NCBI GenBank assembly: GCA_964519305.1
Contig: CAZFHY010000006.1
Coordinates: forward strand, 86,099-150,098
DNA length: 64,000 bases
DNA from: Candidatus Undinarchaeota archaeon
GTDB lineage: Archaea; SpSt-1190; JASMDC01
Direction: 5' to 3'
Below the pieces are notes generated by a model. That model saw only the letters and a list, made by a program, of their open reading frames with translations, ran no database searches and was not told the DNA's origin. Positions 2,143-63,841 of this stretch are shown piece after piece (position 1 is the stretch's first letter; every line of letters starts with the position of its first letter). The translations under genes were made by a program, and so were the position numbers.

Positions 2143-3711
2143 TTATCGTCCGGTCAGTTCGTAGCGTGCGGGATCGAGCGTGCCGGGAGGCACAAGGACG
2201 ACATAGGAGCCCCAGTCCCAGGTGTCAAGGATGGTCACCTCGAAGAGGTCCTCATCGATGGGATCCTTGTCCTGATGGTTCTCGAACACCGACAGCCAGT
2301 CCGTGCTCTTGTCGCGAACAAGGAGCGCGATATGATCGCCCCCACGAGCGAGAACGTACCCGCCGTTCACCCGTGTATCATCGTGGAGCAGGTCGATGAC
2401 CGTGCTGTCCTTCCTCGTCCGGTCGTGGATCTCGATTGTCGTCTCGCCAGCATCGGTGACCGTCGTCGTGGAAGGACGGAAGTCGAGCAGGAAGAGGTCG
2501 ATGGGCAGGTCGTAGTATGTATGCTGGCCCTGCGCCACCTGGATGGCATACCCGTGCTCGTTCTTCTTGTTCCAGTGAGGGTGCTGCGAGTCCGGGGCGA
2601 CGAAGATTACCTGCCATCCCTGCTGTACCAGCTCCCGGGCTATGCCGATACCGCGCTTCCCTGTCCGTGTGTAAGCGCTGAAGAGCTGCTGGTACCGGGA
2701 GCCCAGCCCTGCCTCGTTGTGCGCCTCCTTCAGAACGTCCAGCACGATGCCGATGCACGAGCTCTCACGCGGTATCCGGTCCACGTCACTCGCCGTGGAA
2801 GATGTGGCGAGGGAGAGGGCCTCGGCCGCGTCCTTCCCTTCCATCCTAAGCTTGTAGTACCGGTACACGCCATCCGTGGTCGGCAGCCGTGGCACCGCCT
2901 GCTCGACCTCTTGAGCTATCCGCTGCTCGAACTGTTCCATGACACGATCCCGGGACTTCGGTTGTAGGACGAGCTGCCCGTAGAGGTCGAAGTTCAGCGT
3001 GCTGAGGTCACCCTGTTTGAGCAGGGCATAGAGGAGGGCCTTGGGATGGCTCCCGCCGAACCTGGTGGTGAGGAGCTCGGCATACTCCGAGTCGTCGCCG
3101 TAGTGGGTGCTGACGCCGAACCCGTGCTGCTCGTCGAGAGCTAGCTTGTGCTCGGAATGGGTCCGCAGCGCCTTCCGGGAGATGAGCTTGCCCATCGATA
3201 TGTCAGCAGTCGTGTCCACTGGGGCCGTACCTGCCGGAGCGGAGCCCAGCAGGCACCGTCCGTTCGCGATATACGTGCGTTCCTCGACACGCTGGAACCC
3301 GCGGTCGGCGACCGAGTAGCACTCGCCGGTCTCGAACCGATTGGTTGGACTGCTGACCAGGCAGCACGCGCACGCGAGCCGCAGACCATCGCTCCCTATG
3401 ATGTCGCAATCCAGCCAGTTGTCGAGCCGGCCGTAGAGCTGTGGATAGTGCTTCGTTTTGTCGCCCTGTACCGAGGTCCCGACCACCTTGCCCTCGAAAC
3501 ATGTCGTTTCCTGGCCGCTGACCGATAGGAGGTCGGAGCAGATGATGCACGCGTCCTCCACCATCTCCGAGCCGCCGCCATCAGCGTCCATGCTCTTGAG
3601 GCCCGTGCATGTTTCTGCACCACGATTTCCGTTGCATCCGGCAAGGAGCACCAGCGCGACAAGGAGGAGCGCGATGGCCGTTCCGCCACGCTCCGATCCA
3701 CCGAATACCAT
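2143..3711 (-). CDS. secreted lipoprotein-like protein of unknown function
   Basis: ORF track 522 aa; N-terminal hydrophobic signal followed by LLAGCNGN lipobox-like motif; opposite-strand ORF 2122-2967 is Arg/Val-rich shadow. Confidence 0.5.
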   Translation of the reverse strand: MVFGGSERGGTAIALLLVALVLLAGCNGNRGAETCTGLKSMDADGGGSEMVEDACIICSDLLSVSGQETTCFEGKVVGTSVQGDKTKHYPQLYGRLDNWLDCDIIGSDGLRLACACCLVSSPTNRFETGECYSVADRGFQRVEERTYIANGRCLLGSAPAGTAPVDTTADISMGKLISRKALRTHSEHKLALDEQHGFGVSTHYGDDSEYAELLTTRFGGSHPKALLYALLKQGDLSTLNFDLYGQLVLQPKSRDRVMEQFEQRIAQEVEQAVPRLPTTDGVYRYYKLRMEGKDAAEALSLATSSTASDVDRIPRESSCIGIVLDVLKEAHNEAGLGSRYQQLFSAYTRTGKRGIGIARELVQQGWQVIFVAPDSQHPHWNKKNEHGYAIQVAQGQHTYYDLPIDLFLLDFRPSTTTVTDAGETTIEIHDRTRKDSTVIDLLHDDTRVNGGYVLARGGDHIALLVRDKSTDWLSVFENHQDKDPIDEDLFEVTILDTWDWGSYVVLVPPGTLDPARYELTGR

Positions 3712-3770: not shown

Positions 3771-4793
3771 TCACCGCTCATAGCTCACTGCACCGAGAGT
3801 GATGAGCTTGTTGAGCACCATGTCCACGGCAGCGTTCCCAAGCTGTTCGCGAACTGCCGCTTCGACCTCTACCATGTCACGAGTGCCGTCGCACAATTCC
3901 ACGACGGTCAGTCTCTCCTCGTCCTCTGTGATCTCTGTACCAAGGGGGAACCGAGCTTTGGGAAGTGCCCAGGCCTTCCGCGCCACATCGACCTTCATAG
4001 CCGGACCTTTGCTTGGATTTCCCTCGACAGTGATCAGGGTGCCCCGGTTCATCCCGTGGCGTTCGTCCTGTACGGCGATGACACCGCATGCGAGCGTGTA
4101 GGCAGTGGTCCCTCTCGGAGGGTCCACCTTGGCGTCCCGCTTCAGATGGTCGGTGATCCTGAACCGTGCGTCACGGTCTAGGACCACGCGGCCGCCCTCT
4201 ACCTTGGCGGTGAGGGTGGCGATGGGTGCTCGGGCGCAGGCCTTGACGAGACTGGGCCAGCCCTTGGAGTCCAGTGGGAGCACACCCTTTCCGGTATCAA
4301 GGAAAGCACCGTCCCTGCCCTTTATCTGGCCGGATACCGTACCATCGGGCGCAGGAGTGCATGCGGCCGCGAGCTCCAGCAGGCGCCGACCACCGCCCTT
4401 GGCGCGCTTCCATACACCTTCGAAGAACCGTGATGCAATCCGTCCCTTACCCGAGACCACGGCTCCCGCACCGTTCAGTCCCGCAAAAGGATTGGCACCG
4501 ACGTAGGCCCGCTCACCGTCCGCGATCACCAGGCATCCGTCAAGCCCTTCAGCGAACCGGCTGCGGGCTCCGAGGAACCGTCCCTTGAACCGTCGGAGGG
4601 CCAGTGGGTCCAGTTGTCCTTCGGCCAGGTTGGCCACAACCCGGAGGCGTACCGCCGATCGCTCGAACCTCACTCGCGGCTCTTCAAGGAAGATCGGAGC
4701 GATGATATCCAAGGAGCGTCGGGCACCGGCCATGAGCCGGACCACCTCGCGCGGGAGGGTGTGACGTCCGTCCTCGAGCACCAGGTGGACCAT
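3771..4793 (-). CDS. hypothetical protein (downstream partner of carbamoyltransferase)
   Basis: ORF track maximal extension 3771-4859 overlaps upstream gene; internal Met (MVHLVLEDGR...) at 4793 is proposed as start; no recognisable motif. Confidence 0.4.
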   Translation of the reverse strand: MVHLVLEDGRHTLPREVVRLMAGARRSLDIIAPIFLEEPRVRFERSAVRLRVVANLAEGQLDPLALRRFKGRFLGARSRFAEGLDGCLVIADGERAYVGANPFAGLNGAGAVVSGKGRIASRFFEGVWKRAKGGGRRLLELAAACTPAPDGTVSGQIKGRDGAFLDTGKGVLPLDSKGWPSLVKACARAPIATLTAKVEGGRVVLDRDARFRITDHLKRDAKVDPPRGTTAYTLACGVIAVQDERHGMNRGTLITVEGNPSKGPAMKVDVARKAWALPKARFPLGTEITEDEERLTVVELCDGTRDMVEVEAAVREQLGNAAVDMVLNKLITLGAVSYER

Positions 4794-8870: not shown

Positions 8871-9147
8871 TACCGGGACACAGAGAATTACTGAATTTTT
8901 GTTCAGTAACATGTGGATACCCTCTGTCGCCCTCATGGAAGCGAAAGGGCACAAGCTTCCCTTCAACAGTCAGCTAGCCAGAAGTCACCACATAGTACGA
9001 CCGTTCCAAAAAAGTACAGTAGACGCTGTATCTTCCTGCCATCACGCGAACATTGCGCGGACGTATCCCTGCCCAATCCTCCCACCTCGATATTGTAGGT
9101 GACGTGCCAGCAATGTCGCGTCTTGGGGGGCCCGGCCCGGTATCGAA

Positions 9148-9166
9148 AAGAATATATTATATTCAC
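9148..9166 (+). promoter_or_regulatory. TATA-box-like element (aatatattatatt) upstream of pilin-like gene
   Basis: AT-rich motif about 15-25 nt upstream of ATG 9179 in a 440-bp low-GC intergenic region; consistent with a leaderless transcript. Confidence 0.35.
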
Positions 9167-9178
9167 CCGTTAAGTCCC

Positions 9179-10933
9179 ATGGAAGGTGATCCGGTGGCAA
9201 GTAGAATCCTAACACTTTCATCTAGGAGTAACTCCGCTGGCCAGGCGGCCATGGAGTTCCTGATGAGCTACGGCTGGATGCTGGTGATCATCGTCATCGG
9301 CGGTGCCGCGATGTACTCCATGGGCATCCTCAACCCGGGCACCTACCAGAAGAAGGGCTGCGTCGGGTTCGAGAAGATCCATTACCGCGACCACCTGTTC
9401 CGCGGTACGGGCGAGGTCGGGCTGTGGACGGTGTGGTCGTCAGAGACCGAGCGCGAAAGCCAGTTCCAACTGCGTATGCAGAACGGGGCCGGGATCACCC
9501 TCCGCATCCGGGGCATCGACGTGGAGTATCCCGAGGGCGTGCACGTGACGTGGTCCGAGCGCGGCTACGACTGCGACTACTACAACACCGCTGACGACAC
9601 CGACTCGGGCTGCCAGGAGCAGAACGTGTCCGAGGGGGATCTCGCCACCCTCTCCATCGAGGACGTGGGGCGGGGGACTCTGGACCTGCGACACGGCGCC
9701 GTGTACCGCAGCAAGGTCAAGGTGACGTTCGACGCGTTCAACGCGCTGGAAGATCACTCTGAGGTGGCCATCTGCTGTGGCAAGATCGAGGGCGGCTCGA
9801 CCGCGTCCACATCGGGCGGCGGGAGCGGTTCGGGGTCCGGAACCGGTAGCGGTACGGGCTCCGGTACAGGTACTGGCAGCGGTACGGGATCCGGGACCGG
9901 GAGCGGCACCGGGGCGTCCTGGGGCCCCTGCATGGCCACGTGGGAGAAGGACGACGGATCGGACTACGAGATCATGTATGCCTCGTGGAACGGCGCGTGG
10001 AGCACCGCCGCCAAGGTGACCGACAACGCAATCTATGATAGCGCTCCTTCAATATCCTGCACCTCGTCGTCGTACTGCATGGCCGTCTGGTTCGCGTACG
10101 ACGGATCGGACTACGAAATCATGTACGCTACGTGGAACGGCGCCGCGTGGAGCGCCGCCGCCGCGGTGACCGACAACGCGGTCTCCGATACCAATCCCAT
10201 CGTGTCATGCCCGACCACGTCCTTCTGCATGGCCACGTGGAACGGGCATGACGGGGACAGCGAGATCATGTACGCTACGTGGAACGGCGCCGCGTGGAGC
10301 GCCGCTGCCAAGGTGACCGACAACGCACTCTCCGAGTCCATGTCCTCCGTGTCCTGCGCCACATCGTCGTCCTGTATGACCGCGTGGCGCGTCCTAGATG
10401 GGAATTACGAGATCAGGTCCGCCGCATGGAACGGTGCTTCTTTGAGCGATGCCGAGGTGACCGACTTCGCGTACAACGACATCCAGCCCTCCGTCTCCTG
10501 CCCCTCGGCGAGCTCCTGCATGGTCACGTGGAGCAGGCACCAGGGGTCCAGCGGCGGGGACTACGAGATCATGTCCGCTACGTGGAACGGCGCCGTATGG
10601 AGCGCTGCCGCCCTGGTGTGCGACAACTCGGACCAAGACTACGAGCCCACCGTGTCCTGCCCGACCACGTCCTTCTGCATGGCCACTTGGCACGCGTCCG
10701 GCGTCGGGATCAAGTACGCCTCTTGGAACGGCGCCTCGTGGGGCGCGGAGGCGACGGTTGTCGGATCGGGGATCAATCCCCAGGTATCATGCACGACATC
10801 GAGCTCGTGCATGGTGGTGTACTCCGTGAACGATATCAAGAGCGCTACATGGAACGGGAGCTCATGGAGCGACGCGGGGACGGTGGACACCGCCGCAGGC
10901 ACGAACTATCCGTACGTCTCGTGCGTGGGGTGA
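9179..10933 (+). CDS. archaeal pilin-like protein with class III signal peptide, Gly/Ser/Thr linker and ~8 tandem ~55-aa Trp/Cys repeats
   Basis: ORF track 9053-10933 (TTG maximal start); ...SAGQAAMEFLMSYGWMLVIIVIGGAAMY matches archaeal prepilin-like signal; repeat unit contains DYEIMYATWNGAAWSAAAKVTDNA...SC.TSS.CMA.W; start 9179 (ATG) or 9251 uncertain. Confidence 0.6.
   Translation: MEGDPVASRILTLSSRSNSAGQAAMEFLMSYGWMLVIIVIGGAAMYSMGILNPGTYQKKGCVGFEKIHYRDHLFRGTGEVGLWTVWSSETERESQFQLRMQNGAGITLRIRGIDVEYPEGVHVTWSERGYDCDYYNTADDTDSGCQEQNVSEGDLATLSIEDVGRGTLDLRHGAVYRSKVKVTFDAFNALEDHSEVAICCGKIEGGSTASTSGGGSGSGSGTGSGTGSGTGTGSGTGSGTGSGTGASWGPCMATWEKDDGSDYEIMYASWNGAWSTAAKVTDNAIYDSAPSISCTSSSYCMAVWFAYDGSDYEIMYATWNGAAWSAAAAVTDNAVSDTNPIVSCPTTSFCMATWNGHDGDSEIMYATWNGAAWSAAAKVTDNALSESMSSVSCATSSSCMTAWRVLDGNYEIRSAAWNGASLSDAEVTDFAYNDIQPSVSCPSASSCMVTWSRHQGSSGGDYEIMSATWNGAVWSAAALVCDNSDQDYEPTVSCPTTSFCMATWHASGVGIKYASWNGASWGAEATVVGSGINPQVSCTTSSSCMVVYSVNDIKSATWNGSSWSDAGTVDTAAGTNYPYVSCVG
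9790..9916 (+). repeat. low-complexity GS/GT-encoding tract (linker) inside pilin-like gene
   Basis: ggc/agc/acc/ggt codon repeats encoding GGGSGSGSGTGSGTGSGTGTGSGTGSGTGSGTG. Confidence 0.7.
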
Positions 10934-16008: not shown

Positions 16009-17292
16009 TTAGCTCAACCGAACAAGCTTCTCGCACGGGAACTGGAATCCCTCTGGCATTGGTCGTCCTGTCGGGGGCGCCAAGCAGTAGATGATCGTGT
16101 CGCAGTCCGTGAAGAGGACCGGGAAGCACACCCCCTCGTCCGGAAGCTCGCCCTCATCGGGCTGTGGCAGGTCGAGGCAGATGTTGGTCCCTTTCACCTT
16201 CGACGGCTTCAGAGGCTGGCCGTCGCAGTAGGGCATCTCGCCCTCGCAGTTGGAGTTCACCGTGTCGCCCGTGAACGTGAGAACACGGGCGTACTGTGTG
16301 ACCGGGATCATGCACGGTAGGTCCTCGTTCGCAGTGGTCGCACACCCGATCTGCTTCCACGCACCGTCCAGGGAACATCCCGAGGGATTTGGATCAGTGG
16401 TGGGTGCTGGGGTCCCGAGCGGCGGTACTTCCCCCCGCTCGAGCTTGAGGCACGGCGGTTCCCCCTCCTCGAGAGGCTCGTCGTCCACGGGACAGAAGAA
16501 GAGCGAGTCGCAGTCGATGAACGTGAAGGGGATGCAGGGCTCACCCTCCTCTCTCTCCATGCAGAGCTGGTTCCCGTCAACGATCTTGCCCGTGAACGCC
16601 TCGTCCTTGTTACAGAAGCTACCGCGGCATCCGAATGTCCCCGTGCCCCCGTCGGTGTAGGTGAGCATCACAGTGGCATAAGCGAGAGGTGCAGGGCTCG
16701 GCATTTCGCGGCCTTCCAGGTCGGTGTGCCCGGTCTGGACCCATGATCCTGTGAGGGAGCAGCCAGTTGTTCCGGTGGCCGGCGTCGCTGATGGAGACGT
16801 GACAGGTATCGGGCTGGCCGTGGCCGCGATCGGATTCGGTGTCGGGCTGGTTGTCGCATCTACCGTATTTTCGGTCATGGGCGACGGATCCTCGTCAACG
16901 GTCGGTTCCGGCTCGGTGCCGTTCATCAACGTCTCCCAGGGGACGGACGTGGGAACCGCTCCATCGCCCCCACTGGTCCCCGTGAGCCCGTCCAGGTAAC
17001 CGCCCTGGTACCCGATGAGCGCCACGCCCAGAACGAGCACCGCAACCATGCTCAGAAGGACAGGAAGACTGCTGGATGCGGCCTCTACGGCCACGACCTC
17101 CTCGACAGGGGCGGCCGTCGCCTCCACGTACGCGGCCTGGGCCTGGAGCGACTGGAATGCGGTGTCCACGGCGGCGGGGTCGTATCCGGACTGGATCATG
17201 TAGGAGCGTACCTGGTAGGGGGTGTAGCCCTGGTTGAGATACTCCTGGATATAGTTGGCGTAGTAGCTCGTGTAGTCCTGGTACGCCTCCAC
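16009..17292 (-). CDS. type-II membrane protein with conserved N-terminal cytoplasmic module and two extracellular Cys-rich repeats
   Basis: 427 aa; N-terminus YTSYYANYIQEYLNQGYTPYQVRSYMIQSGYDPAAV, single TM, Thr/Pro linker, two ~115-aa 8-Cys modules. Confidence 0.55.
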   Translation of the reverse strand: MEAYQDYTSYYANYIQEYLNQGYTPYQVRSYMIQSGYDPAAVDTAFQSLQAQAAYVEATAAPVEEVVAVEAASSSLPVLLSMVAVLVLGVALIGYQGGYLDGLTGTSGGDGAVPTSVPWETLMNGTEPEPTVDEDPSPMTENTVDATTSPTPNPIAATASPIPVTSPSATPATGTTGCSLTGSWVQTGHTDLEGREMPSPAPLAYATVMLTYTDGGTGTFGCRGSFCNKDEAFTGKIVDGNQLCMEREEGEPCIPFTFIDCDSLFFCPVDDEPLEEGEPPCLKLERGEVPPLGTPAPTTDPNPSGCSLDGAWKQIGCATTANEDLPCMIPVTQYARVLTFTGDTVNSNCEGEMPYCDGQPLKPSKVKGTNICLDLPQPDEGELPDEGVCFPVLFTDCDTIIYCLAPPTGRPMPEGFQFPCEKLVRLS

Positions 17293-17315: not shown

Positions 17316-18086
17316 TTAAGTGGATTTGCCTTCGCGGGCCAGCGCCTCGCAGGGCACTTCCACGCCCGCGGCCGGGGGGCGGTCCACTGGCGAGAGGCAG
17401 TACACCATCGTATCGCAGTCAACGAACTCCAGCGGGTAGCAGAGGCCCGTGGTGTCCATGCAGATGCGGCGACCATCCTCTGTCCTGGCGGACGTGCCCT
17501 CGCCCGGGGGACAGTACGGTTCTTTCCCCTCGCACTCGAGAACGGCGGTCCCGCCCTCATCGATTGTGACTATCCGCGCATAGTCCTCCAGTGCCACAGC
17601 GCATGGTCGCTCCTCACCGTCTGTGGAGGCGCACCCAATCTGACGCCAGCGCCCTTCGATCGGGCACTCGAGCTCCGGGTCCACGCTCCGTGGCGTTGGT
17701 GTGGGGCTGGCTGAGGCGGTGCGACGCTGTGCGGTTCTTGTACTCGTGACGGCCTGGAGCTGCGTGCGGACAATAGGTTCAGCCTGGATCCCGCTGGTAG
17801 AGGTGAGGTTGTGGAGGAGACCTTGCTGATATGCAACAACAAACCCTCCTATGAGCACCAACACGGCAAGGAGAGCGACCACAGTTCCCCGGGATTGTCC
17901 TTCATTGGTCGGTGTCGGCGGCTCCTCCCCTTTAACGAGGGCCTCCGCAGTGGCCTCGTCGTACCCCATCTCGATGAAGAGCTCCTTGACCTGCTCGGGT
18001 GGGTAGCCCATCTGCAGGTACTCCTGAGCATAGGATGCATAGTAGCTGGAGTACTGGGCATCCCCCATCGGGAGGATACTCATCAC
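17316..18086 (-). CDS. paralog of 16009-17292 (same N-terminal module, one Cys-rich module)
   Basis: 256 aa; N-terminus YSSYYASYAQEYLQMGYPPEQVKELFIEMGYDEATAEALV, TM, Cys-rich ectodomain. Confidence 0.55.
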   Translation of the reverse strand: MMSILPMGDAQYSSYYASYAQEYLQMGYPPEQVKELFIEMGYDEATAEALVKGEEPPTPTNEGQSRGTVVALLAVLVLIGGFVVAYQQGLLHNLTSTSGIQAEPIVRTQLQAVTSTRTAQRRTASASPTPTPRSVDPELECPIEGRWRQIGCASTDGEERPCAVALEDYARIVTIDEGGTAVLECEGKEPYCPPGEGTSARTEDGRRICMDTTGLCYPLEFVDCDTMVYCLSPVDRPPAAGVEVPCEALAREGKST

Positions 18087-18123
18087 TAGTGCTTTAATTG
18101 GTTTCTATGGGACCTCTGCAAGC

Positions 18124-18651
18124 TCAGAGCTTTTCGAAAGTGAGGTCCTTGGGTGGCATGCACATGGAGGCCACGGTGATGTGGAGTCGGTCCTCCTCGC
18201 CCTGGTAGATGGCAAGTGTCCGTGCGTCCATGGCGCGACCCTCGGATACCCGGTAGGCCTTGTTCCTGGAGAGGTAGTGGGAGCCGGTGAACGTCACGTC
18301 GAGCCACTTTTCCTCGCTCATGCCGTTGCCCCGTCCTTGTAGATGGAGCCCCTGCTCGTCCTCGTAGATGAGGAGCTTCGGGGCTTCGGGGAGGAGGGAG
18401 TCGGCCTGGATGAGATAGCCGTTGTCCAGCTCCATGTAAGAACCGTTCTCGAAAAGCGACTCTACGAGGTCGAGCTGGTTGTAGAGGGACTCGAGCGCGG
18501 CCCCGGGCACGGGTCTTAGTGAGCCCGCGAACCCGACGTTGTAGCCGGCGGCGGCGGGCGAGGCGAAGGGTTCGAAGACCTCTAGCCCCGATACGTCCAA
18601 TCCGGTCCCGGCCTCGGCCGCGTCCATATCGAGAAGATACATGATCATCAC
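18124..18651 (-). CDS. hypothetical protein
   Basis: 175 aa ORF with balanced composition; overlapping alternative frame 18086-18676 is Arg-rich and rejected; TATA-like tttaaaaa at about 18690 upstream. Confidence 0.4.
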   Translation of the reverse strand: MMIMYLLDMDAAEAGTGLDVSGLEVFEPFASPAAAGYNVGFAGSLRPVPGAALESLYNQLDLVESLFENGSYMELDNGYLIQADSLLPEAPKLLIYEDEQGLHLQGRGNGMSEEKWLDVTFTGSHYLSRNKAYRVSEGRAMDARTLAIYQGEEDRLHITVASMCMPPKDLTFEKL

Positions 18652-18689
18652 TTGTCCTTGCGGACGGAGGCGACAAGCAATGGTCCGTT

Positions 18690-18850
18690 TTTAAACATTT
18701 TCTTTGGATTTGACACGAAATCGCACGATTTGGGCTTATTCCCCGAAAAAACGGCTATTAAGCCTTAATAACATCTTTGAGCGTCTGTAGGGCGTCGAAG
18801 CGCACCGCATACTTTCATGCTATGTGAACTACCCCTCACCAATTAGAGGG
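18690..18850 (-). ncRNA. putative omega-RNA (reRNA) region at the right end of the tnpB element
   Basis: By analogy with IS200/IS605 TnpB systems the guide RNA overlaps the 3' end of tnpB and extends downstream; an oligo-T run (gccgttttttcgggg on the minus strand) lies near 18745; boundaries not determinable by eye. Confidence 0.25.
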
Positions 18851-20150
18851 GCTTCCCGCTTCGATACTGTTTCCAGCTCCACGGGCGCATCGGGTGGTCC
18901 CCACCCTGAGCGATTCTGAATGTTGATTGCTGCGTTCAGGTCGCGGTCAATGGTAAGGCCGCAGTTCCAGCAGCTATGTACTCGAACCGACAGGTCCTTC
19001 TTCACTAGCATACCACAACGGCTGCACATCTGAGAGGTGTTTTTCGGGTCAACCAGTACTACCTTCCCACCAGCCTCTTCCGCTTTGTAGGTGGTGTACT
19101 GGATGACCTTGTTCCAAGAAGCATCAACAATGGACTTTGCTAGATAGTGGTTTTTCATCATATTGAGGATATCGAGTTTCTCGAAGGTGATGGTCGAGTA
19201 GTTATCAGCAAGCTGACGGGAGAGCTTGTGGGCGAAGTCGGTGCGCTGGTTTCGGACCTTGCGGTGCACTTTGGCAAGCGCCTTCTTAGCCTTTTTCCTA
19301 CGGTTCGAGCCAATCTTTCTTCTTGAGATCCGACGCTGACGCGTCTTGATATTTTTCTCCGACTCTCGGAGGAAGCGTGGATTCTCGATGACGGCCCCAT
19401 CGGAGAGAGTGGCGAAATTCTCAAGGCCGACATCCACGCCGACGGCGATCCCGTCATGTGATCTAGCCTCGACTTTTACCTCACAGGAGAAGACGACGTA
19501 CCACTGATCAACATCGCGCTTGACGGTGCAGGTCTTTATCCTACCTTCGAGCGGTCGATGTAGCTTAATGCGAACGGGACCGATCTTCGAGAGTTTGAGA
19601 TGCTGTTCATCCGGAGAAAGTGAGAAGCCGCTCTGCGGATAGGTGAATGAGTCATATCTCCCCTTGCCCTTGAACCGGGGGTATCCGGGAGTTTCACCGT
19701 TCCTCACACGACGGAAGAACGCGTCGAACGCCTTCCTCAACCTCCGGAGGACATCCTGAAGTACTTGGGAGTGGACCTGTTGCTGATACTCATCCCTGTT
19801 TCCCGGGAGGGCGTCCTGTTGGTCCCTGTAGGTGACGCATCGTTGCTCATCCTTCCAGGCATCCGTGCGTTCTGCAAGTGCGTTGTTATAGAGCCTACGG
19901 CAGGTCTCGAGTGTGAATATTAGAATCGATTCCTGAGACTTGTTCGGATACAGACGATATCTGTAGCTACGTATCACTGTTTCCCCGTCCCCCACCAGAT
20001 ATCCTATTGGATGAAATAGTATTGCCGTGAATAAATAGGACTGGGAGGTGGCGTGCCAGTACTCGTTCAGGAAGTAACTTTCGAGTAAGTCACCTCCCTC
20101 TCGGAAGGCGACATCCCGCCGAAACGTAGAAAAGAGTTAGTCATCATACG
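18700..20150 (-). mobile_element. IS1341-like (tnpB-only) insertion element, approximate boundaries
   Basis: tnpB plus flanking lower-GC ends; imperfect hairpin gggaggtg...cacctccc at 20043-20097 near the putative left end. Confidence 0.45.
18829..19995 (-). CDS. tnpB: IS200/IS605-family transposase accessory protein TnpB (RuvC-like nuclease with zinc finger)
   Basis: 388 aa; canonical N-terminus RSYRYRLYPNKSQ, central RuvC-like region, C-terminal CxxC...CxxC zinc finger (CSRCG...CWNCG); no tnpA adjacent. Confidence 0.85.
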   Translation of the reverse strand: MGDGETVIRSYRYRLYPNKSQESILIFTLETCRRLYNNALAERTDAWKDEQRCVTYRDQQDALPGNRDEYQQQVHSQVLQDVLRRLRKAFDAFFRRVRNGETPGYPRFKGKGRYDSFTYPQSGFSLSPDEQHLKLSKIGPVRIKLHRPLEGRIKTCTVKRDVDQWYVVFSCEVKVEARSHDGIAVGVDVGLENFATLSDGAVIENPRFLRESEKNIKTRQRRISRRKIGSNRRKKAKKALAKVHRKVRNQRTDFAHKLSRQLADNYSTITFEKLDILNMMKNHYLAKSIVDASWNKVIQYTTYKAEEAGGKVVLVDPKNTSQMCSRCGMLVKKDLSVRVHSCWNCGLTIDRDLNAAINIQNRSGWGPPDAPVELETVSKREAPLIGEG

Positions 20151-20151
20151 A

Positions 20152-21471
20152 GTGGTCATGCGGGTGCTCCTCCTGGCCCCACGCGTGACGGAGGGCGAGT
20201 CCACTCTTCCTTTGGGGCTGGCTTATATCGCCTCCGTGCTCGAGGCCGATGGATGCGAGGTCCTTGGACGCGACCTATCCTTCACAGGACCTGAGGACGT
20301 TGCACAGGAGGCCGCCGACCTAGAGGTGGACGTGGTGCTCGCATCCTCGCTCACCAGCACCCTGGGCCAGGTGTCGGCAGCATGTGACAAGCTCCGACGC
20401 GCGACGGGGGTCCCTATCGCCCTGGGCGGCCCTCACGCCACAGCTCTACCGACCCACGCACTGGACGCCGGTGGCTTCGACGCTGTGCTGGTTGGCGAGG
20501 GTGAGGACCGGGTGCTCCCGCTCGTCAGGGCACTGTCCGGGAGCGGCCGGTTGACACGCGTCCCCGGACTCCGCCTCCCCGATGGTGCGTCAACGGGCCC
20601 GGCTCTGTCGCCTCCCGATCCGGATGCTCTTCCCTTTCCACGACGAGATGCCTTCCCCGAGAGCTTGTACTCGGGCATGCCATCCCGGGGTCCGTATACT
20701 CCGCTCATCACCTCTCGCGGGTGTGGTCGCCGGTGCGCTCACTGTCCTTCCCGTTCCCTCGTGGGGGGTCCGAGACGGCGTTCTCCGGACAACGTGGCCG
20801 ACGAGGTGGAACACATACTCTCGTGCGGGTACCGTGAGGTCCACGTGGAGGATGATGGTTTCACCGAGGACCGGGGCCATGTGCTTGGAATCTGTGATGC
20901 CTTCAAGGAGCGTGGACTGGACATCGACTGGGCGTGCACCAACGGGCTCCATCCGGACGACCTGGACGAGGGCCTTCTAGCTTCCATGGCCGGGGCCGGT
21001 TGTTACTCGATCGCCCTGGGTATCGAGTCCCTTGACCGATCTACCCTGGCCACTCTGTGCAGACCTATGGACCTGGAACGTATCGCAGGACTTGTCCGTG
21101 CGGCCCACGACCACGGTATTGAGGTCTGTGGTTACTTCATGCTCGGCATTCCGGGGATGGAGCTCAATGATGGGGCATCCCTGGCCGACGAGGCACTTGC
21201 CCTTGACCTCGACACCGCCCATTTCTCCGTGTTCTCACCCTTGCCCGGATCACCCATATTCTCCCGTTTGGCAGCTGATGGAGCATCGGTTGATGAGCTG
21301 GTGGCCGGTCGCGTCCCTGGGATGGACCGGGCCACTCTCGAAGTGGAAAGTACTCGGGCGTACCGCCGCTTCTACGCGGGGCACAAGGGAGTTGCCGTGG
21401 CACGCAAGGCCCTTTCCACTGGCAGACCGCTCGAGCCGATAGTCAAAAAGTTTAAAGACTGGTTCGTCTAA
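20152..21471 (+). CDS. B12-binding domain radical SAM protein (class B)
   Basis: 439 aa; N-terminal B12-binding-like region, CGRRCAHC radical SAM motif. Confidence 0.75.
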   Translation: MVMRVLLLAPRVTEGESTLPLGLAYIASVLEADGCEVLGRDLSFTGPEDVAQEAADLEVDVVLASSLTSTLGQVSAACDKLRRATGVPIALGGPHATALPTHALDAGGFDAVLVGEGEDRVLPLVRALSGSGRLTRVPGLRLPDGASTGPALSPPDPDALPFPRRDAFPESLYSGMPSRGPYTPLITSRGCGRRCAHCPSRSLVGGPRRRSPDNVADEVEHILSCGYREVHVEDDGFTEDRGHVLGICDAFKERGLDIDWACTNGLHPDDLDEGLLASMAGAGCYSIALGIESLDRSTLATLCRPMDLERIAGLVRAAHDHGIEVCGYFMLGIPGMELNDGASLADEALALDLDTAHFSVFSPLPGSPIFSRLAADGASVDELVAGRVPGMDRATLEVESTRAYRRFYAGHKGVAVARKALSTGRPLEPIVKKFKDWFV

Positions 21472-21481
21472 CGCCCACCTT

Positions 21482-22897
21482 ATGGGCAAGCGTGTGGTTT
21501 TCCTTCGGGCCGATCCGGAACGGCTCTCGCCGGGACACCACCCGCGCAACGCCTACCCCTGCATGAACATCCGTTACAGTGCCTCCGTGGCCATGGCCAT
21601 GGGGTACGATGTGGAGGTCATCGACATGGCAGCGAGCCTGCCGAGCGGCACACTGGCCGAATCGGTGGCCGCAGCACGACCTGACGCAGTAGTATGCGAT
21701 GTCATCACCCCTGCCGTCCAGTTCACTCTTGACGCCGTCGAGCGGATCGGGGTCCCGGTCCTCGCTATGGGACAGCATTCATCGGCGCTACCGCGGACAT
21801 TACTCGATAGAGAGGGGCCGGTGGACGGCTGTATCGTGGGCGAGGCCGAACAAACGCTCCAAGAGGCACTGCCCGCTATCATGGCAGGGGACCTGTCATC
21901 CCTTGCCGGAATGGCCGGGCTCGTTGTCCGGTCACCCGATGGGCCCATCGAAGGACCGCCCCGCGCTCCTCTCGAGCGGCTCGATGAGCTCCCCTATCAG
22001 GCCCATACCTCTCACCACGGGAGCTACTACACGCACTATCCTATTCGGACCCGGGGCCGCCGTCGGTTCGGTTTCATCGAGGCGGGCCGTGGCTGCCCGC
22101 ACTCGTGCTTATTCTGTTCACAGACACTGCGGATATCCTATGGCAACCGGGTCCGGCTACGATCGCACGAGAGCGTGGCCGCTGAGGTCGATTATCTCGT
22201 CCGTGAGCTCGATGTGAACGCGCTCGTGTTCCTGGACGACGCCTTCTGTCTCGATCACAAGTTCGCCCATGGCATCTGCGACTCCCTTATCGAACGGGGG
22301 CTCAACGACAAGGTGTCATGGCTGGTGCAGACCCGTGTAGACGCGGTCGACGAGGACCTACTGACCCACATGCGTGAGGCTGGCTGCTCCTCAGTCTGCT
22401 TCGGTGTCGAGTCAGGCAGCCAGCGTGTGCTAGATGTGTTGCGCAAGGGCGTCAAGCTCGACCAGATCCGGGCAGCGTTCCAGATGGCACATGATGCGGA
22501 CCTCCTCAGGGTCGGGTTCTTCATGCTCGGTAATCCGACAGAGACCCGGGAGGAGCTTGAGAGCACCAAGGCCTTCTGCCGTGAGCTTGCCCCGGACTTC
22601 ATTCAGGTCGCGTTCTTCACGGCGTACCCGGGCTCGGCCGCTTGGGCGGAATGGGGCGACACGACCGACTACGACTCCTACACCCACTATAACGCAGTGA
22701 TCAGCAACCGGAGCGAAATGAGCAATGAGGAACTGATCGAGCTCCATCGGGAGTTCTATCTCACCTTCCTTTCCCGTCCGGACTTCGTCGCACGCTATGC
22801 CCGCTACCGTCTTCCCAGGGCCCTTGCGAACTGGCGCGAGGAAGCGGAGCTGATGCGGACGGCGTTCGGGTTCTTCACGTCCCAGCACAGTGATTAG
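21482..22897 (+). CDS. B12-binding domain radical SAM protein (class B)
   Basis: 471 aa; CPHSCLFC radical SAM motif; follows previous rSAM gene by 10 nt. Confidence 0.75.
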   Translation: MGKRVVFLRADPERLSPGHHPRNAYPCMNIRYSASVAMAMGYDVEVIDMAASLPSGTLAESVAAARPDAVVCDVITPAVQFTLDAVERIGVPVLAMGQHSSALPRTLLDREGPVDGCIVGEAEQTLQEALPAIMAGDLSSLAGMAGLVVRSPDGPIEGPPRAPLERLDELPYQAHTSHHGSYYTHYPIRTRGRRRFGFIEAGRGCPHSCLFCSQTLRISYGNRVRLRSHESVAAEVDYLVRELDVNALVFLDDAFCLDHKFAHGICDSLIERGLNDKVSWLVQTRVDAVDEDLLTHMREAGCSSVCFGVESGSQRVLDVLRKGVKLDQIRAAFQMAHDADLLRVGFFMLGNPTETREELESTKAFCRELAPDFIQVAFFTAYPGSAAWAEWGDTTDYDSYTHYNAVISNRSEMSNEELIELHREFYLTFLSRPDFVARYARYRLPRALANWREEAELMRTAFGFFTSQHSD

Positions 22898-29600: not shown

Positions 29601-31415
29601 ATGAACGTGCACCCCTTGATTGGAATGGAGCCCGTGCTCTCGGTAGATGATCACTTCGGTGTGCTGGAACGACTGGAGGCCATGGCCTTCGAGCCATCCG
29701 AGTGGCATGACCTCAACCTCGCTGCTCACGGGCTCTCGCTGACGGGTCAGTTCGAGCGTGCTGCCATCGTAGAGCGTGTCAAGCAGAAGATACGCATCCT
29801 CCCGCACCAGATCGAGACTGCGCTGCGTGTGCTCAACGACCTTGGCCATCGCGCGTTATTGGCCGATGAGGTAGGGCTGGGCAAGACCGTGGAAGCGGGT
29901 ATCGTGCTCAAGGAGTACCTGGTCCGTGGCCTTGTGGACCGCGTGCTCATCCTCACACCTGCTCCCTTGGTCCGTCAGTGGCAGGGAGAGCTTGAAGAGA
30001 AGTTCGGTGAAGGGTTCATCACCCCTCTTGACGATGGGTTCCGTGGGTTCGAGAAGGAGGACCGTCTCATCTGCTCCATGGACAGGGCCCGCCAGCCCAA
30101 GAACGCACCCTTTGTCCAAGCCCGTCCATGGGACCTCCTTATTGTGGACGAGGCCCACCGGCTGCGCAACGTTGAGACGAAGCTCCACCAGTTCGTGGCC
30201 GGGATCGACGCTCGTTACCTGCTCATGCTAACCGCGACCCCCATCCAGAACAACCTCTTCGAGCTGTTCAACCTCATAGACCTCCTCAAACCGGGTCATC
30301 TGGGTACGCGGAACCAGTTCGGTGTCTATTTCGTAGGGGACCGTAAGGCTCAGACGCTCGAGAACGAGGGGGAGCTGCGCGAGCTTCTGGGCCAGGTCAT
30401 GGTGCGCAACCGTCGCGCCGATGTAGGGCTCCAGCTCCCAGACCGCCATGTCCACGACATCATGCTTGATCCTTCTCCCCAGGAGGCCGAACTGTACCGT
30501 CGGGTCATCGGCTATATCGCTGACCAGTACGACGAGGCCGACGACGGTGGGGAGTTCGACGCCGCTGAGGCCCGTGGGACGACACGTGGTATCGACCTTC
30601 TGAGGCTCATGACGCTCGAGCGTGAGCTCGTGTCATCCAGTCAAGCTCTGGCCGCTACCCTGCGCAAGATAATCCCACGAGAGCCCGATCCCGAGAAGCG
30701 CGTGCTTCTGGACGAGCTGTACGAGCTTTGCCTGTCGGCCCGGGACAGCACCAAGGCCCGCAATCTCCTGGAGCTCGCTCAGCGCTTGGACACTTCCCTC
30801 ATCGTGTTCACGCAGTTCATCTCCACCCAGGAGCATCTGCGGGAACGTCTGGATGCCGCAGGCCTGTCGCCCGTGGTGTTCAACGGCAGCATGTCACCCT
30901 CCGAAAAGGAGTTCGCTATCCAGGGTTTCAAGGAGCGGGGCGGTGTGCTCCTGTGCACTGACTCGGGGAGCGAGGGCCGGAACCTCCAGTTCGCCAACGT
31001 GCTGGTGAACTACGACCTTCCCTGGAATCCCATGCGCCTGGAGCAGCGTATCGGCCGGATCCACCGCATCGGCCAAGAGCGGGACGTCCACGTGTTCAAC
31101 CTAACGCTCGCGGGCACGATCGAGGACCACATACTCACGACGCTCTATCGCAAGATCGACCTCGTCACCGCGGCTGTGGGCGATATGGACCTGATCCTTT
31201 CCAAGCTGCCCGATGGCGTATCCTTCGAGCGCCGACTGTTCGAGCTGTCGTTGCGCATCAAGGACAAGCGTTCCTTCGACGATGGGATGAAAGAGTTCGC
31301 CGATGAGATGGCGGAGGCCAAGGAGCTGGCAGCCAAGGTGCATCAGCTGGATGCCCGTGTGCTCGAGCGCTTCGACCTATCGTCACTGGAGAATGCGGGG
31401 GTGCGAATCGAGTGA
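29601..31415 (+). CDS. SNF2-family helicase/ATPase (compact, RapA-like)
   Basis: 604 aa; motif I LADEVGLGKTVEAG, motif II LLIVDEAH, motif III LTATPIQNN, helicase-C motifs DSGSEGRNLQ and QRIGRIHRIGQ. Confidence 0.75.
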   Translation: MNVHPLIGMEPVLSVDDHFGVLERLEAMAFEPSEWHDLNLAAHGLSLTGQFERAAIVERVKQKIRILPHQIETALRVLNDLGHRALLADEVGLGKTVEAGIVLKEYLVRGLVDRVLILTPAPLVRQWQGELEEKFGEGFITPLDDGFRGFEKEDRLICSMDRARQPKNAPFVQARPWDLLIVDEAHRLRNVETKLHQFVAGIDARYLLMLTATPIQNNLFELFNLIDLLKPGHLGTRNQFGVYFVGDRKAQTLENEGELRELLGQVMVRNRRADVGLQLPDRHVHDIMLDPSPQEAELYRRVIGYIADQYDEADDGGEFDAAEARGTTRGIDLLRLMTLERELVSSSQALAATLRKIIPREPDPEKRVLLDELYELCLSARDSTKARNLLELAQRLDTSLIVFTQFISTQEHLRERLDAAGLSPVVFNGSMSPSEKEFAIQGFKERGGVLLCTDSGSEGRNLQFANVLVNYDLPWNPMRLEQRIGRIHRIGQERDVHVFNLTLAGTIEDHILTTLYRKIDLVTAAVGDMDLILSKLPDGVSFERRLFELSLRIKDKRSFDDGMKEFADEMAEAKELAAKVHQLDARVLERFDLSSLENAGVRIE

Positions 31416-42517: not shown

Positions 42518-44371
42518 TCACACCGTGGGGACCGGGCCGGGAACAACTTCAGTTGTATGCCGCGCCAGTCGCTTGATCTTGTTGATGACGTCCTTCTTAT
42601 CCTTCCAGATCAGTGCGTGCTCGAGCACATCGCTGATCGTGTCCACGGGGACGATCTCGATAAGCCCCTTCTTGTCATCATCCAACAGCACATCCTTGAG
42701 GTTGGCGGCAGGGATGAGCACCTTCTTGAGGCCTGCCTCGATAGCAGCCTCGATCTTGGACGTGACACCTCCCACAGGAAGCACGTCGCCCCGTACGGAC
42801 AGGGATCCCGTCATGGCCACGCTCTGGCGGATGGCTACCTGCTCCAGAGCAGATACCACGGCGGTGACCACAGAGATACTGGCCGAATCACCCTCCACCC
42901 CCTCATAGGTCTGAAGGAACTGGATATGGACATCGAAGTTGGCGATGTCCTTCCCGAAGTACTTCTTGATGGGGGCTGAGACGTTCTTGATCGCTTCCTT
43001 GGCGATCTCGCCCAGCTTTCCCGTGGCGATTATCCTTGACGACTCGCGGGCCATCGAAGGGGTGACGTTGGCGACGATGGGGAGCACGATGCCCGAGTCA
43101 CCGAACACGGCCAGGCCGTTGACCTTCCCAACGTTGGTGCCTGTGGCGCGGAACACCTTGTATTCCTTCTTCTCCTCGATGTACTTGTCGGCGATCTGCT
43201 GCTCAAGGGTTCGGGCGAACACCTTGGCCTTGGTGATGTGGGACGGGTTCACGAGGTCGCAATCCTCGGCCTTTGCGATGTCGCCCGCGGCGCGCACCAG
43301 GCCTCCGAGCTCACGGAGTCGGAGGGTGAGGTGGCCCTTGCGGTTGGCCCGTCGACGTGCCTCGTAGATCACCAGCTCGATGGCCTCCTTGGAGAAGTGT
43401 GGGATCTTGCCGTCCTTCGTCACTTCCTGGGCCACGAACCGGGCGACCTTCAGCTGGTTCGCCTCGCTGTCGGGGATGGTGTCGTTCATGTACACCTCGT
43501 ACCCGTAACCACGGATGCGCGAGCGCAGAGCAGGATTCATACCCTCGATGGTCTTGACGTTACCGGCTGCTACGAGCACGAAGTCACAGGGCACGGGCTT
43601 GGTGCGTACCATGGCCCCCGACGACCGCTCACTGCGACCCGTGATGGAGTATTTCTTCTCCTGCATCGCGGAGAGCAGGTCGATCTGCATCTCCGGTTTA
43701 AGGGTGGCGATCTCGTCGATGAACAGCACGCCCTTGTGCGCACGGTGGATCGAGCCGGCCTCCACGCGGTCGTGGGCAGGCGTCTCCAGCCCTCCGGACT
43801 GGAAGGGGTCATGCCGCACGTCGCCCAGTAGCGATCCCTCGTGCGCCCCGGTGGCGTCCACGAAGGGCGCCTTCTCGCCCCGCCTGTGAGTGAGGAGGAG
43901 CTTGGGCACCTTTGACTTGGTCTTTGAGCGAAGGTACTGGAATGGCACGAACAGTAGAGCGGCAGCGATGATGCCTGTGAGCAGCTGTCCGGTGAAGAAC
44001 CCGTACCAGATCAGACAGAATATGAGCATGAGGGCGATGAGGTTGCGCAGGGACTCGGTCTTGTTCACCTCGTTCTTGTAGGATGATACGATGAGCTTAC
44101 CCTGGCCGGCCTTGACGGTCTTTACGAGTGGCTCGTTATCGTCCTCCGAGTTAGGGAACACGATGACGTCCTCTAGCTCTTCTCGGGAGATGAGCTCGGC
44201 CATCCCTTGGGCCAGCATGGACTTGCCCGTGCCGGGTTCGCCGATGAGCATGACGTGGCGCCGCTGGAGCGCGGCCTTCTTCATGACCTCCACTCCGCGC
44301 TCTTGACCTATCACCTGGTCAATGATCCCCTCAGGGACCTCGACGTCCCGTGTGGACTCTGGTAACTCCAC
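42518..44371 (-). CDS. lonB: archaeal membrane-bound ATP-dependent Lon protease (LonB)
   Basis: 617 aa; Walker [13 protein letters not shown] insertion within the AAA+ domain, C-terminal Lon protease domain with Ser-Lys dyad region (GDSASIS...K). Confidence 0.85.
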
Positions 44372-62675: not shown

Positions 62676-63338
62676 ATGCCCTCCGACCCGGAGGAGGTTG
62701 ATGGTCTGGTTGAGCCAGAACCCAGTAATACCCTTCCTCTGGTGCGAGTGGGTGTCGTCCTGGCAGTGCTCTGCTTGTTCCTCTATACTGCAGCCCGCTT
62801 GAACGCTCCCCAAGGATGTGCGGTCATCCATATCAAAGGATCATTGGCTGGCGGCAAAGAATCCCGGGTCACCTATGAAGGGGCAAGGGGCGTGATCACG
62901 GTCGAAGGAGGGAACTTCAACCAGCTGGTACAGGCAGCTGATCGGTTGGCGCTCTTCTTCCTGGGTGTTTCCGGTGAGCAGTACAACCTTAACCTCAAAG
63001 GGGAGATGCGGACCTATGAGATACCCTTTCCTGTCAAGACCGTTGACGGCGGGATGACCGAGATAATGGTCGGGATGCGTTCCAATCCATCCCGCCTGGG
63101 TGACATCCCGGTGGATGATCAGGAGGGGCTCGAACGGTTCATTGAGGCACGTCCGGCCCGATTCGCTTTCGCTTTCCATCCCAATGCTGGAGGTGAGGAC
63201 GTGGTGGCCGCAACCGAAGTGTCCACTGCTCTGGCGCTCCGGTTCAGTTATCTGAACACCACTGACGACATCCTGACATTCAATGAGGCGACCGGCGGTG
63301 TCCACAGCCTTGAGACCGCACTGGAGGCGTGCACATGA
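62676..63338 (+). CDS. membrane-anchored hypothetical protein
   Basis: ORF track 62526-63338; ATG 62676 (MPSDPEE) about 25-30 nt downstream of TATA-like ctattaaaag; one TM helix. Confidence 0.4.
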   Translation: MPSDPEEVDGLVEPEPSNTLPLVRVGVVLAVLCLFLYTAARLNAPQGCAVIHIKGSLAGGKESRVTYEGARGVITVEGGNFNQLVQAADRLALFFLGVSGEQYNLNLKGEMRTYEIPFPVKTVDGGMTEIMVGMRSNPSRLGDIPVDDQEGLERFIEARPARFAFAFHPNAGGEDVVAATEVSTALALRFSYLNTTDDILTFNEATGGVHSLETALEACT

Positions 63339-63841
63339 GCCTTCCGATGGAGATCCTGAACGCCTTCCTGTACTTCTTACCCGCATATATGGCGAACATG
63401 GCCCCCTGCTACATGGCCCATTTCTCTTTCTTCAAGGCGCTCGCCTATCCTCTGGATATGGGCCGGGAGTGGATGGATGGCCGACGCATATTGGGTGAGG
63501 GCAAGACTATTGCCGGATTCGTGTACGCTGCTGTCATCGGTGCTGCTGTATCTCTGGGTCAGGGTAATACGTGGATGCTCGGTTTCGTGATGGCGATCGG
63601 TGCGCTCATGGGTGACCTCGCCGGGTCCTTCCTGAAACGTCGGATCGATGTGGGCCGTGGGGAACGAACGCTGCTCCTTGATCAGCTCGACTTCGTGGTC
63701 GGAGCGCTGATCGTCCTGTATCTCGTCGGATGGGCGCCACCGCTGAGGACCATGGTAATACTCCTCCTCATCACTCCTCCGCTCCACCTGCTGATGAACT
63801 TCGTCGGCTACGCGCTCAAATACAAGGAGGTGCCTTGGTGA
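63335..63841 (+). CDS. carS: CDP-archaeol synthase (CarS)
   Basis: ORF track 63329-63841; MSLPMEILNAFLYFLPAYMANMAP...GDLAGSFLKRRI motifs; ATG 63335 overlaps upstream stop (ATGA) with GGAGG 7 nt upstream. Confidence 0.75.
   Translation: MSLPMEILNAFLYFLPAYMANMAPCYMAHFSFFKALAYPLDMGREWMDGRRILGEGKTIAGFVYAAVIGAAVSLGQGNTWMLGFVMAIGALMGDLAGSFLKRRIDVGRGERTLLLDQLDFVVGALIVLYLVGWAPPLRTMVILLLITPPLHLLMNFVGYALKYKEVPW

Follow-up and report, generated by a model that had tools for sequence, protein, structure and literature searches.

Positions 18824 to 20136 (minus strand) of the stretch analysed here are, in our reading, a non-autonomous insertion of the IS200/IS605 family. The stretch is a 64-kb window (64,000 nucleotides, positions 86,099 to 150,098 of contig CAZFHY010000006.1) from a Candidatus Undinarchaeota archaeon. 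The 1313-bp element is of the tnpB-only (IS1341) type, and its TnpB and omega-RNA would be programmed against the element's own empty locus; we give this reading as a whole a probability of about 0.9. The reading is carried by an empty allele that lacks exactly these bases, by an intact and constrained TnpB, and by a covarying RNA that lies within the 3' end of the gene and stops at the element boundary. A first-pass annotation of the window, made from the sequence alone, had already proposed a tnpB-only IS200/IS605-type element with a candidate omega-RNA region, and covariation and a covariance-model match bear this out; the ends of the element and the place of its RNA are revised below.

An empty allele delimits the element

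The span of the element was foretold from the points at which similarity to relatives, found in at least five different genomic contexts, starts and stops. On the 3' side the similarity ends 5 bases past the tnpB stop codon, at ...GAGGGGTAG-TTCAC, and on the 5' side its onset is some 141 nt ahead of the start codon, with a TTTAA/TTTAT-like motif immediately in front. The empty allele, on a sister-strain contig (locus L072) retrieved by searching with the neighbouring 174-aa protein (95% protein identity), then agreed with these limits. In the DNA alignment, sequence corresponding to window positions 23448-20137 (87.1% identity) joins straight to that of positions 18823-17332 (83.5%), and the bases absent are exactly 18824-20136. 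Base by base, with a slash for each junction, the empty allele reads ...GGTGATTAATGTTAA/ATAGCATGAAAGTATGCGGTG... and the window ...GATGACTAA/element/ATAGCATGAAAGTATGCGGTG..., so that the comparison of occupied and empty junctions makes the predicted boundaries exact. The first-pass annotation, which had itself proposed an empty site as the means of finding the ends, had drawn them wider, at 18690-20150.

Neither a target-site duplication nor terminal inverted repeats are seen between the occupied and the empty allele. Because both are lacking and the insertion lies 3' of a TTAA-type motif, the junctions bear the signature of IS200/IS605 insertion, the hallmarks of which have been described (PMC8612924, PMC10055086). 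The reconstructed empty site had no match in an exact-pattern metagenome search. Within the family, the IS200 and IS605 subgroups carry a Y1 (HUH) transposase, TnpA, which the IS1341 subgroup lacks by definition. Since the 1313 bp hold tnpB alone and no Y1_Tnp domain is found in the window, we assign the element to the IS1341 subgroup and regard it as non-autonomous. Across the element the GC content falls from about 62% to about 50%, and the GC content at third codon positions is 0.63 in tnpB against 0.73-0.82 in the neighbouring genes; these drops are consistent with a foreign origin.

TnpB is intact and under purifying selection

The tnpB gene is an uninterrupted open reading frame (ORF) of 388 aa with a GTG start at 18829..19995 on the minus strand, recognised by ORF calling, domain models and alignment. 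Its start is uncertain by six codons, GTG 19995 (388 aa) and GTG 19977 (382 aa) being the two candidates. In the relatives tnpB opens with an ATG (MRSYRYRLYP...), in place of which the window has ATA (19972-19995, minus strand); as they start one codon later than GTG 19977, the latter may be the real start. Three Pfam domains, HTH_OrfB_IS605 (PF12323), OrfB_IS605 (PF01385) and Cas12f1-like_TNB (PF07282), score above their cut-offs, and NF040570, the NCBIfam model for RNA-guided TnpB, gives 347.5 bits at a cut-off of 100. Residues 10-361 align to the structures of ISDra2 TnpB (PDB 8H1J/8BF8/8EXA, E ~6e-61). In this alignment D188, E272 and D352 fall on the RuvC triad (D191/E278/D361 in ISDra2), and the pairs CSRC 324-327 and CWNC 342-345 (C324/C327 and C342/C345) fall on its zinc finger, in keeping with the RuvC-like and zinc-finger motifs of the first-pass annotation. 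The C-terminal tail past residue ~362 lies beyond the TnpB family model and is encoded by the RNA scaffold region described below.

Against six relatives the ratio of nonsynonymous to synonymous substitution rates (dN/dS) is 0.12-0.17. Because of this ratio and the intact catalytic residues, we conclude that tnpB is not decaying and that the ORF is under purifying selection. By analogy with its homologues, the protein is predicted to make double-strand DNA breaks that are RNA-guided and dependent on a transposon-associated motif (TAM).

Weak, sub-threshold matches to the Cas12f2, C2c8 and IS607_TnpB models could be taken to mean that the protein is instead a mini type V CRISPR effector (Cas12f-like), or an IS607-type TnpB that would be partnered by a serine recombinase. 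The scores nevertheless stay far below the cut-offs (Cas12f2 NF049972, 93 vs 450 bits; C2c8, 130 vs 350; IS607_TnpB NF038280, 187 vs 350), the 64-kb window holds no CRISPR-like array, and the partner found in relatives is a Y1 HUH transposase and not a serine recombinase. The insertion itself, 3' of a TTAA motif and with no duplication, likewise bears the mark of IS200/IS605. We give this identification next to no weight.

The omega-RNA core lies inside the gene

The conserved core of the omega-RNA scaffold maps to 18824..18915 on the minus strand, where it takes up the last 87 nt of the ORF and 5 nt past the stop codon. It comprises three hairpin regions with five helices and has the 3' terminus ...GGUAGUUCAC. 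A nucleotide profile of this segment found full-length matches in eight distant relatives, and in the RNAalifold consensus of 14 sequences 11 of the 19 base pairs show compensatory changes on both sides, seen across relatives down to ~45% protein identity. Such variants occur in all three hairpins: GGGTGG/CCACCC, CCGCAG/CTGCGG and CCGTAG/CTACGG in hairpin 1, CCCG/CGGG and CCTG/CAGG in hairpin 2, and CCCCTC/GAGGGG, CTCCTC/GAGGAG, CCACTC/GAGTGG and CCATCC/GGGTGG in hairpin 3. In the alignment 95.1% of cells are paired, against 36-49% in a control with the partners slid, and the covariation score was matched by none of 500 shuffles.

Covariance model R1, built from the 14-sequence alignment, has a single match in the window, at 18824-18915 on the minus strand (98.6 bits, E 1e-24). 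The model also finds six Methanoperedens tnpB 3' ends outside its seed (44-55 bits), and pairing stays at 93.8% in the extended alignment, which has 55 double-sided changes. The 3' end of the ORF up to the element boundary folds with z = -2.57. As expected of an RNA embedded in an ORF, the synonymous substitution rate (dS) is 30-70% lower in codons 301-385 than in codons 10-300. Binning of codon identity among close relatives gave a weak 3' signal (0.91 vs a mean of 0.79), because these relatives are too similar; for covariation, sequences only 45-55% identical were needed. On its 5' side the omega-RNA may reach further upstream inside the ORF.

The ...GGUAGUUCAC terminus is kept down to ~45% protein identity, with flanks that diverge right after it; its terminal motif TTCAC (UUCAC in the RNA), kept in relatives, forms the right end of the element at 18824..18828 (minus strand). 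The guide-proximal hairpin, CCCCTC-TAATTGGT-GAGGGG at 18832..18851 (minus strand), has compensatory variants in relatives and would double, in single-stranded DNA, as the subterminal palindrome of the right end; its compensatory changes could equally reflect constraint on the RNA. A GUGGA/UUCAC pseudoknot suggested by the alignment was dropped, as it competes with helix 2 and is broken in L039.

In the layout of the first-pass annotation, the omega-RNA would lie downstream of the stop codon, at about 18700-18850, and be ended by an oligo-T run near 18745, and a hairpin at 20043/20098 would mark the other end. Downstream of the ORF there are indeed an AT-rich stretch and a run of six T (T6), and the other end does have an exact 8-bp inverted repeat close by. 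The bases from 18823 downward, T run included, are nevertheless present at the empty site in L072 and in L071, and are host DNA; since the T6 run (18745-18750) and TTTAAAAAC (18685-18693) occur in both of these loci, they are host intergenic DNA outside the element. The region 18690-18850 shows no more folding than its shuffled versions (z = -0.08), the relatives share nothing beyond TTCAC, and the hairpin lacks comparative support. The covariance-model search that the annotation had proposed as a check puts the RNA at 18824-18915. We consider the downstream layout practically untenable.

Guide, TAM and natural target

The host flank that would encode the guide, ATAGCATGAAAGTATGCGGT, lies directly past the UUCAC terminus at 18804..18823 (minus strand). 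It is identified by its identity to the empty allele, and its length of ~16-20 nt is taken from ISDra2 (PMC8612924). L072 reads GTTAA/ATAGCATGAAAGTATGCGGTG here, with 21 nt identical to window positions 18823-18803, and the guide 16-mer is found only once in the window. From the comparison of left flanks, the TAM position in the host DNA is 20137..20141 (minus strand), where the window reads ACTAA. The corresponding motif is TTTAA in L005 and L012, CTTAA in L004, GTTAA in the empty allele, and TTTAT in L011, L019 and six of the six aligned Methanoperedens loci. Judged by these flanks, TTTAA/TTTAT is the putative TAM of the family, and the ACTAA of the window is a degenerate version of it.

Over the 20-odd bases from the insertion point to the radical SAM start (20137-20151 vs L072 3306-3325), the occupied and empty alleles diverge far beyond their surroundings, with a 6-nt indel and several substitutions and with ACTAA against GTTAA, where the surrounding DNA is 83-87% identical. 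L005 and L012 (about 2838-2867 and 4176-4195) have a right flank in common, on the side of a tRNA-intron endonuclease, and with it the same 20-nt guide, GAACGTTTCCCCGCTGCCTG. On the left they show no relation to each other (FTCD gene vs radical SAM gene), a pattern that suggests rearrangement across the element or a chimeric assembly. A radical SAM flank shared between L012 and the window was ruled out, the L012 gene being only a 42% paralogue.

The left end

The left end, at 19996..20136 (minus strand), is the 141 nt upstream of GTG 19995, as defined by similarity to relatives and by the empty site, and would contain the tnpB promoter region. Similarity to relatives opens with CTCTTTT..., directly after the TAM, and by the empty site the first base of the element is 20136. 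A local imperfect palindrome, TCGCCTTC-CGAGAG-GGAGGTGA, lies at 20090..20111 (minus strand). Its sequence is kept in 10/10 aligned left ends and in all relatives, a tnpA-bearing one among them, and 81.6% of its cells are paired, marginally above the slid controls. It resembles the right-end stem CCCCTC/GAGGGG, and the left end of L019 has a homologous CCCCTT...GGGGGATGAATC after TTTAT. We take this palindrome to be the likely candidate for a TnpA-binding hairpin.

The palindrome also shares a GGAGGTG arm with a long-range exact 8-bp inverted repeat, GGGAGGTG/CACCTCCC, with arms at 20043-20050 and 20091-20098 (minus strand). This is the end hairpin of the first-pass annotation: the repeat is there, but its conservation is not. 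It is 69% paired in the five sequences that have both arms, no better than in slid controls, and its 3' arm is within a ~45-nt segment missing from the distant clade.

Relatives, tnpA and mobility

The lack of tnpA, noticed at the outset, holds for the element and for the 64-kb window as a whole. No Y1_Tnp domain is present in the ten small ORFs of the window, a scan of all window ORFs found no HUH...Y motif, and tblastn of the L019 TnpA against the window gave a best E of 0.63. The identical protein is found on 10 marine metagenome contigs with one shared insertion site. Relatives that are 82-88% identical (L004, L005, L009, L011, L012 and L013), some of them from metagenome-assembled genomes (MAGs) labelled Undinarchaeales, stand in different gene neighbourhoods, and a tier at 45-58% identity comprises Methanoculleus, Methanothrix, Methanosarcinales, Methanoperedens and Sifarchaeum. 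One of these distant relatives, L019 from a Methanosarcinales MAG (DAOUSF010000153.1), has an intact, divergent Y1 TnpA (PF01797, 151 bits) next to tnpB; its RNA scores 93.9 bits with model R1, and its TnpB is 52% identical to that of the window. L015 and L046 carry tnpA copies or remnants, likewise next to tnpB. On these comparisons the family includes autonomous elements, and the window element is one of its non-autonomous members, a situation that is common according to Meers et al. (PMC10055086).

In L009 (2875-2926) and L013 (2876-2927) the usual left end is missing, and a remnant of the 3' part of another tnpB (zinc-ribbon/RuvC-III) lies directly upstream of the intact tnpB; in L013 a called 109-aa TNB-domain ORF (2679-3008) falls within the same remnant setting. 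These remnants point to nested or tandem insertions.

Several results weigh against the reading of a programmed, non-autonomous element. With no tnpA in the 64-kb window, and no second copy or fragment of the element there, current mobility is unproven. The motif adjoining the left end is ACTAA (C at -4) and not TTAA, a change that could make TnpA excision as well as TnpB recognition weaker at this locus. The palindrome at 20090-20111 shows almost no covariation across the 10 left ends, which vary too little. Rfam, HgcC included, has no match at gathering thresholds anywhere in the window, and at E <= 10 in 17500-21500 none but a chance match to a long non-coding RNA; as no Rfam family covers the RNA, our covariance model is new in the cataloguing sense only. 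Finally, NF038281, the narrow 'exception' model for IS200/IS605 TnpB, gives 319 bits, under its cut-off of 425, placing the protein outside that model and inside the general TnpB family.

Some of these points, namely the lack of tnpA, the single copy and the ACTAA motif, could mean that the element is an immobile relic, fixed in place, with its transposase partner lost, its TAM degenerate, TnpB and RNA irrelevant and the ORF simply not yet decayed; the one insertion site shared by all 10 identical-protein contigs would also fit. A relic would sit poorly, however, with a dN/dS of 0.12-0.17 and intact catalytic residues, and conservation extends to the synonymous positions and to the base-paired positions of the RNA. 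Relatives at 82-88% identity occupy different sites in related MAGs, indicating that the family moved recently in this lineage, and the search for tnpA covered 64 kb of the genome only. We regard a relic as unlikely. The 3' end of the element thus carries a conserved, covarying RNA and its ORF is no decayed pseudogene, the two points on which the first-pass annotation had staked its proposal, and we keep to the reading of a non-autonomous IS200/IS605-family insertion with an intact TnpB and an omega-RNA.

A possible preference for promoters

In each of five left-flank contexts a divergently transcribed gene starts close by, its ATG 21-39 nt downstream of the insertion point (compared at window 20137-20160; L004 2800-2840; L005 2836-2867; L011 2834-2868; L012 2838-2866; L072 about 3300-3330). 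On the sense strand of the divergent gene the junction reads AAAAAGAG/TTAAA. The window insertion falls in the promoter region of a divergent gene pair, and the radical SAM start codon is 21 nt away. The empty allele has a TATTTAA across the insertion point, ~27-34 nt ahead of the radical SAM ATG, at the distance expected of an archaeal TATA box. The TAM TTTAA/TTTAT coincides with the archaeal TATA box. By a rough null, 21-41% of the intergenic TAM-like sites in the window are already so placed, and for this reason five of five is only a mild excess (p ~0.0004-0.012, with rough gene calls). A true preference of the clade for promoters, in which the left-end terminus would rebuild the upstream half of the promoter and insertions would be tolerated, is therefore doubtful in our view, and the motif by itself may passively account for much of the pattern. 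Promoter proximity does not extend to every insertion of the family, since in L031 (about 2790-2840, Methanoperedens) the element follows directly after a tRNA-like 3' end (GGAGTTCGAATCTCCGCGGGCCCA) and then TTTAT.

That the element sits so close to the radical SAM start codon (21 nt), between divergent genes in their promoter region, could also suggest that TnpB is no longer part of a selfish element and has been exapted for a host function, such as TldR-type RNA-guided regulation of the radical SAM gene or of the unannotated neighbours. Fixation in the sampled population and purifying selection without a local tnpA would agree with such a role. Exapted TldR-type proteins are nuclease-dead, whereas the RuvC triad is intact here and the transposon ends and TAM are conserved. 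Furthermore, the relatives sit in unrelated contexts with unrelated guides, and the guide in the window matches the element's own empty site and not a separate promoter; neither a common-promoter guide across relatives nor a loss of catalytic residues is seen. We judge exaptation to be very improbable.

Proposed mode of action

As a mobile element of the kind proposed here, it would have entered as a single strand by 'peel-and-paste', on the 3' side of a TTAA-like motif in the promoter region from which the radical SAM gene and an unannotated gene diverge. Read-through transcription into the host flank would add a guide of ~16-20 nt (ATAGCATGAAAGTATG...) to the scaffold ending in UUCAC, and the RNA, made from the tnpB transcript or as a sense-overlapping transcript (PMC4615843), would then bind TnpB. 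The complex would cut the element-free form of its own locus, (N)TTAA followed by the same ATAGCATGAAAGTATG... sequence, and repair of the break from an occupied copy would retain or re-install the element (homing). Transposition to a new site would need a Y1 TnpA acting in trans; such a TnpA is still present in relatives that share the RNA class and the ends of the element.

We infer transcription and processing of the RNA, nuclease activity, homing and mobilisation in trans from homologues, namely ISDra2, ISGst and SisTnpB7. In the first, TnpA targets the same motif that serves as TAM, and the right-end element RNA (reRNA) consists of the 3' end of tnpB, the right end and ~16 nt of flank (PMC8612924). 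Most tnpB elements are without tnpA and are mobilised in trans, with homing at the scarless donor joint (PMC10055086). For archaeal TnpB7 the TAM is TTTAA/NTTAA, and the guide begins right after UUCAC (PMC11043419).

The value of the element is practical rather than general. It encodes a compact TnpB (382-388 aa), comes from a poorly studied marine archaeon of DPANN type and is cleanly delimited; with a defined omega-RNA core, a predicted TAM of (N)TTAA/TTTAT, a natural target and an empty-site control, it could serve as a candidate for TnpB mining. It could also mark recent mobile-element activity in small archaeal genomes. For annotation, the correction is that the guide RNA resides inside the gene and not downstream of it.

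Genomic neighbourhood

The radical SAM gene that the first-pass annotation placed beside the element is confirmed by Pfam as B12-binding radical SAM (20152-21471), flanking the left end. The genes on this side include two B12-binding radical SAM proteins, a GT2 glycosyltransferase and a GFO/IDH/MocA oxidoreductase. On the right-end side, the genes at 16009-17292, 17316-18086 and 18124-18651 have no Pfam match, and their identity as surface proteins, proposed at first reading, is plausible from sequence features. The first two (both minus strand) are evident paralogues: each begins with a Y-rich N-terminal motif (YSSYYASYAQEYL... and YTSYYANYIQEYL...), has a hydrophobic segment and linkers rich in Thr and Pro, and ends in Cys-rich modules (C..G.W.QIGCA...); they may be membrane-anchored secreted proteins. 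ARAGORN called a tRNA-Tyr at 18510-18591 (plus strand, 82 nt, anticodon position 32), which we considered as an integration target. The call is probably a false positive, because it falls inside the opposite-strand coding sequence 18124-18651 and has no Rfam tRNA match even at E <= 10.

The host is archaeal, since the window holds a CDP-archaeol synthase gene (63329-63841) and an archaeal LonB (42518-44371; TIGR00764, 895 bits), the latter 95% identical to a protein of a MAG labelled Candidatus Undinarchaeales. Elsewhere in the window, ~3 tandem copies of a 147-nt (49-codon) repeat with 74-78% identity (9928-10387, plus strand) lie within a 626-aa ORF (9053-10933) that has no Pfam hit. A SNF2-family helicase is encoded at 29601-31415 (plus strand); its best NCBIfam models are DISARM DrmD and DpdE, and scores of ~248 against cut-offs of 610-950 support no defence-system call.

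Comparison with known systems

Every feature of the element is precedented: archaeal tnpB-only elements with 3' sense-overlapping RNAs (2015), reRNA/omega-RNA (2021), homing and non-autonomous copies (2023), and a TTTAA TAM with a guide that follows UUCAC (2024). ISDra2 TnpB from Deinococcus radiodurans (PMC8612924, PMC10097598) has the same domain order, D-E-D RuvC triad and CxxC...CxxC zinc finger, and its guide RNA is likewise drawn from the 3' end of the gene, the right end and ~16 nt of flank; it differs in being bacterial, in its TAM (TTGAT) and in having its own tnpA. TnpB7 of Sulfolobus islandicus REY15A (Nat Commun 2024, PMC11043419) comes from an archaeon as well. Experiments showed that its TAM is TTTAA, that NTTAA works equally well and that -4T matters among the least of the positions, and that its omega-RNA ends in a conserved UUCAC followed immediately by the guide, matching the ...GGUAGUUCAC terminus and the TTTAA/TTTAT/GTTAA TAMs described here. 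It belongs to an IS605-type element of a thermophilic crenarchaeon, whereas the present element is tnpB-only and comes from a marine archaeon labelled Undinarchaeales.

The sense-overlapping transcript RNAs (sotRNAs) of IS1341-type elements in Halobacterium salinarum (Gomes-Filho 2015, PMC4615843) are tied to the HgcC family, with a UUCA tetraloop, and the present RNA has no Rfam or HgcC match at E <= 10. The ISGst elements of Geobacillus stearothermophilus (Meers et al. 2023, PMC10055086) are similarly tnpB-only, have conserved ends and are mobilised in trans by a TnpA encoded elsewhere, and their TnpB-omega-RNA cuts the scarless donor joint and thereby retains the element. They differ in being bacterial, in their TAMs and in their many copies per genome, compared with one copy in the present 64-kb window. 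L019, the closest relative with a tnpA that was found, agrees with the present element in the class of its omega-RNA and in the GGTAGTTCAC terminus, has TTTAT as its TAM and carries a left-end hairpin homologous to the palindrome described above; its TnpB is only 52% identical, and with its own Y1 TnpA it is autonomous.

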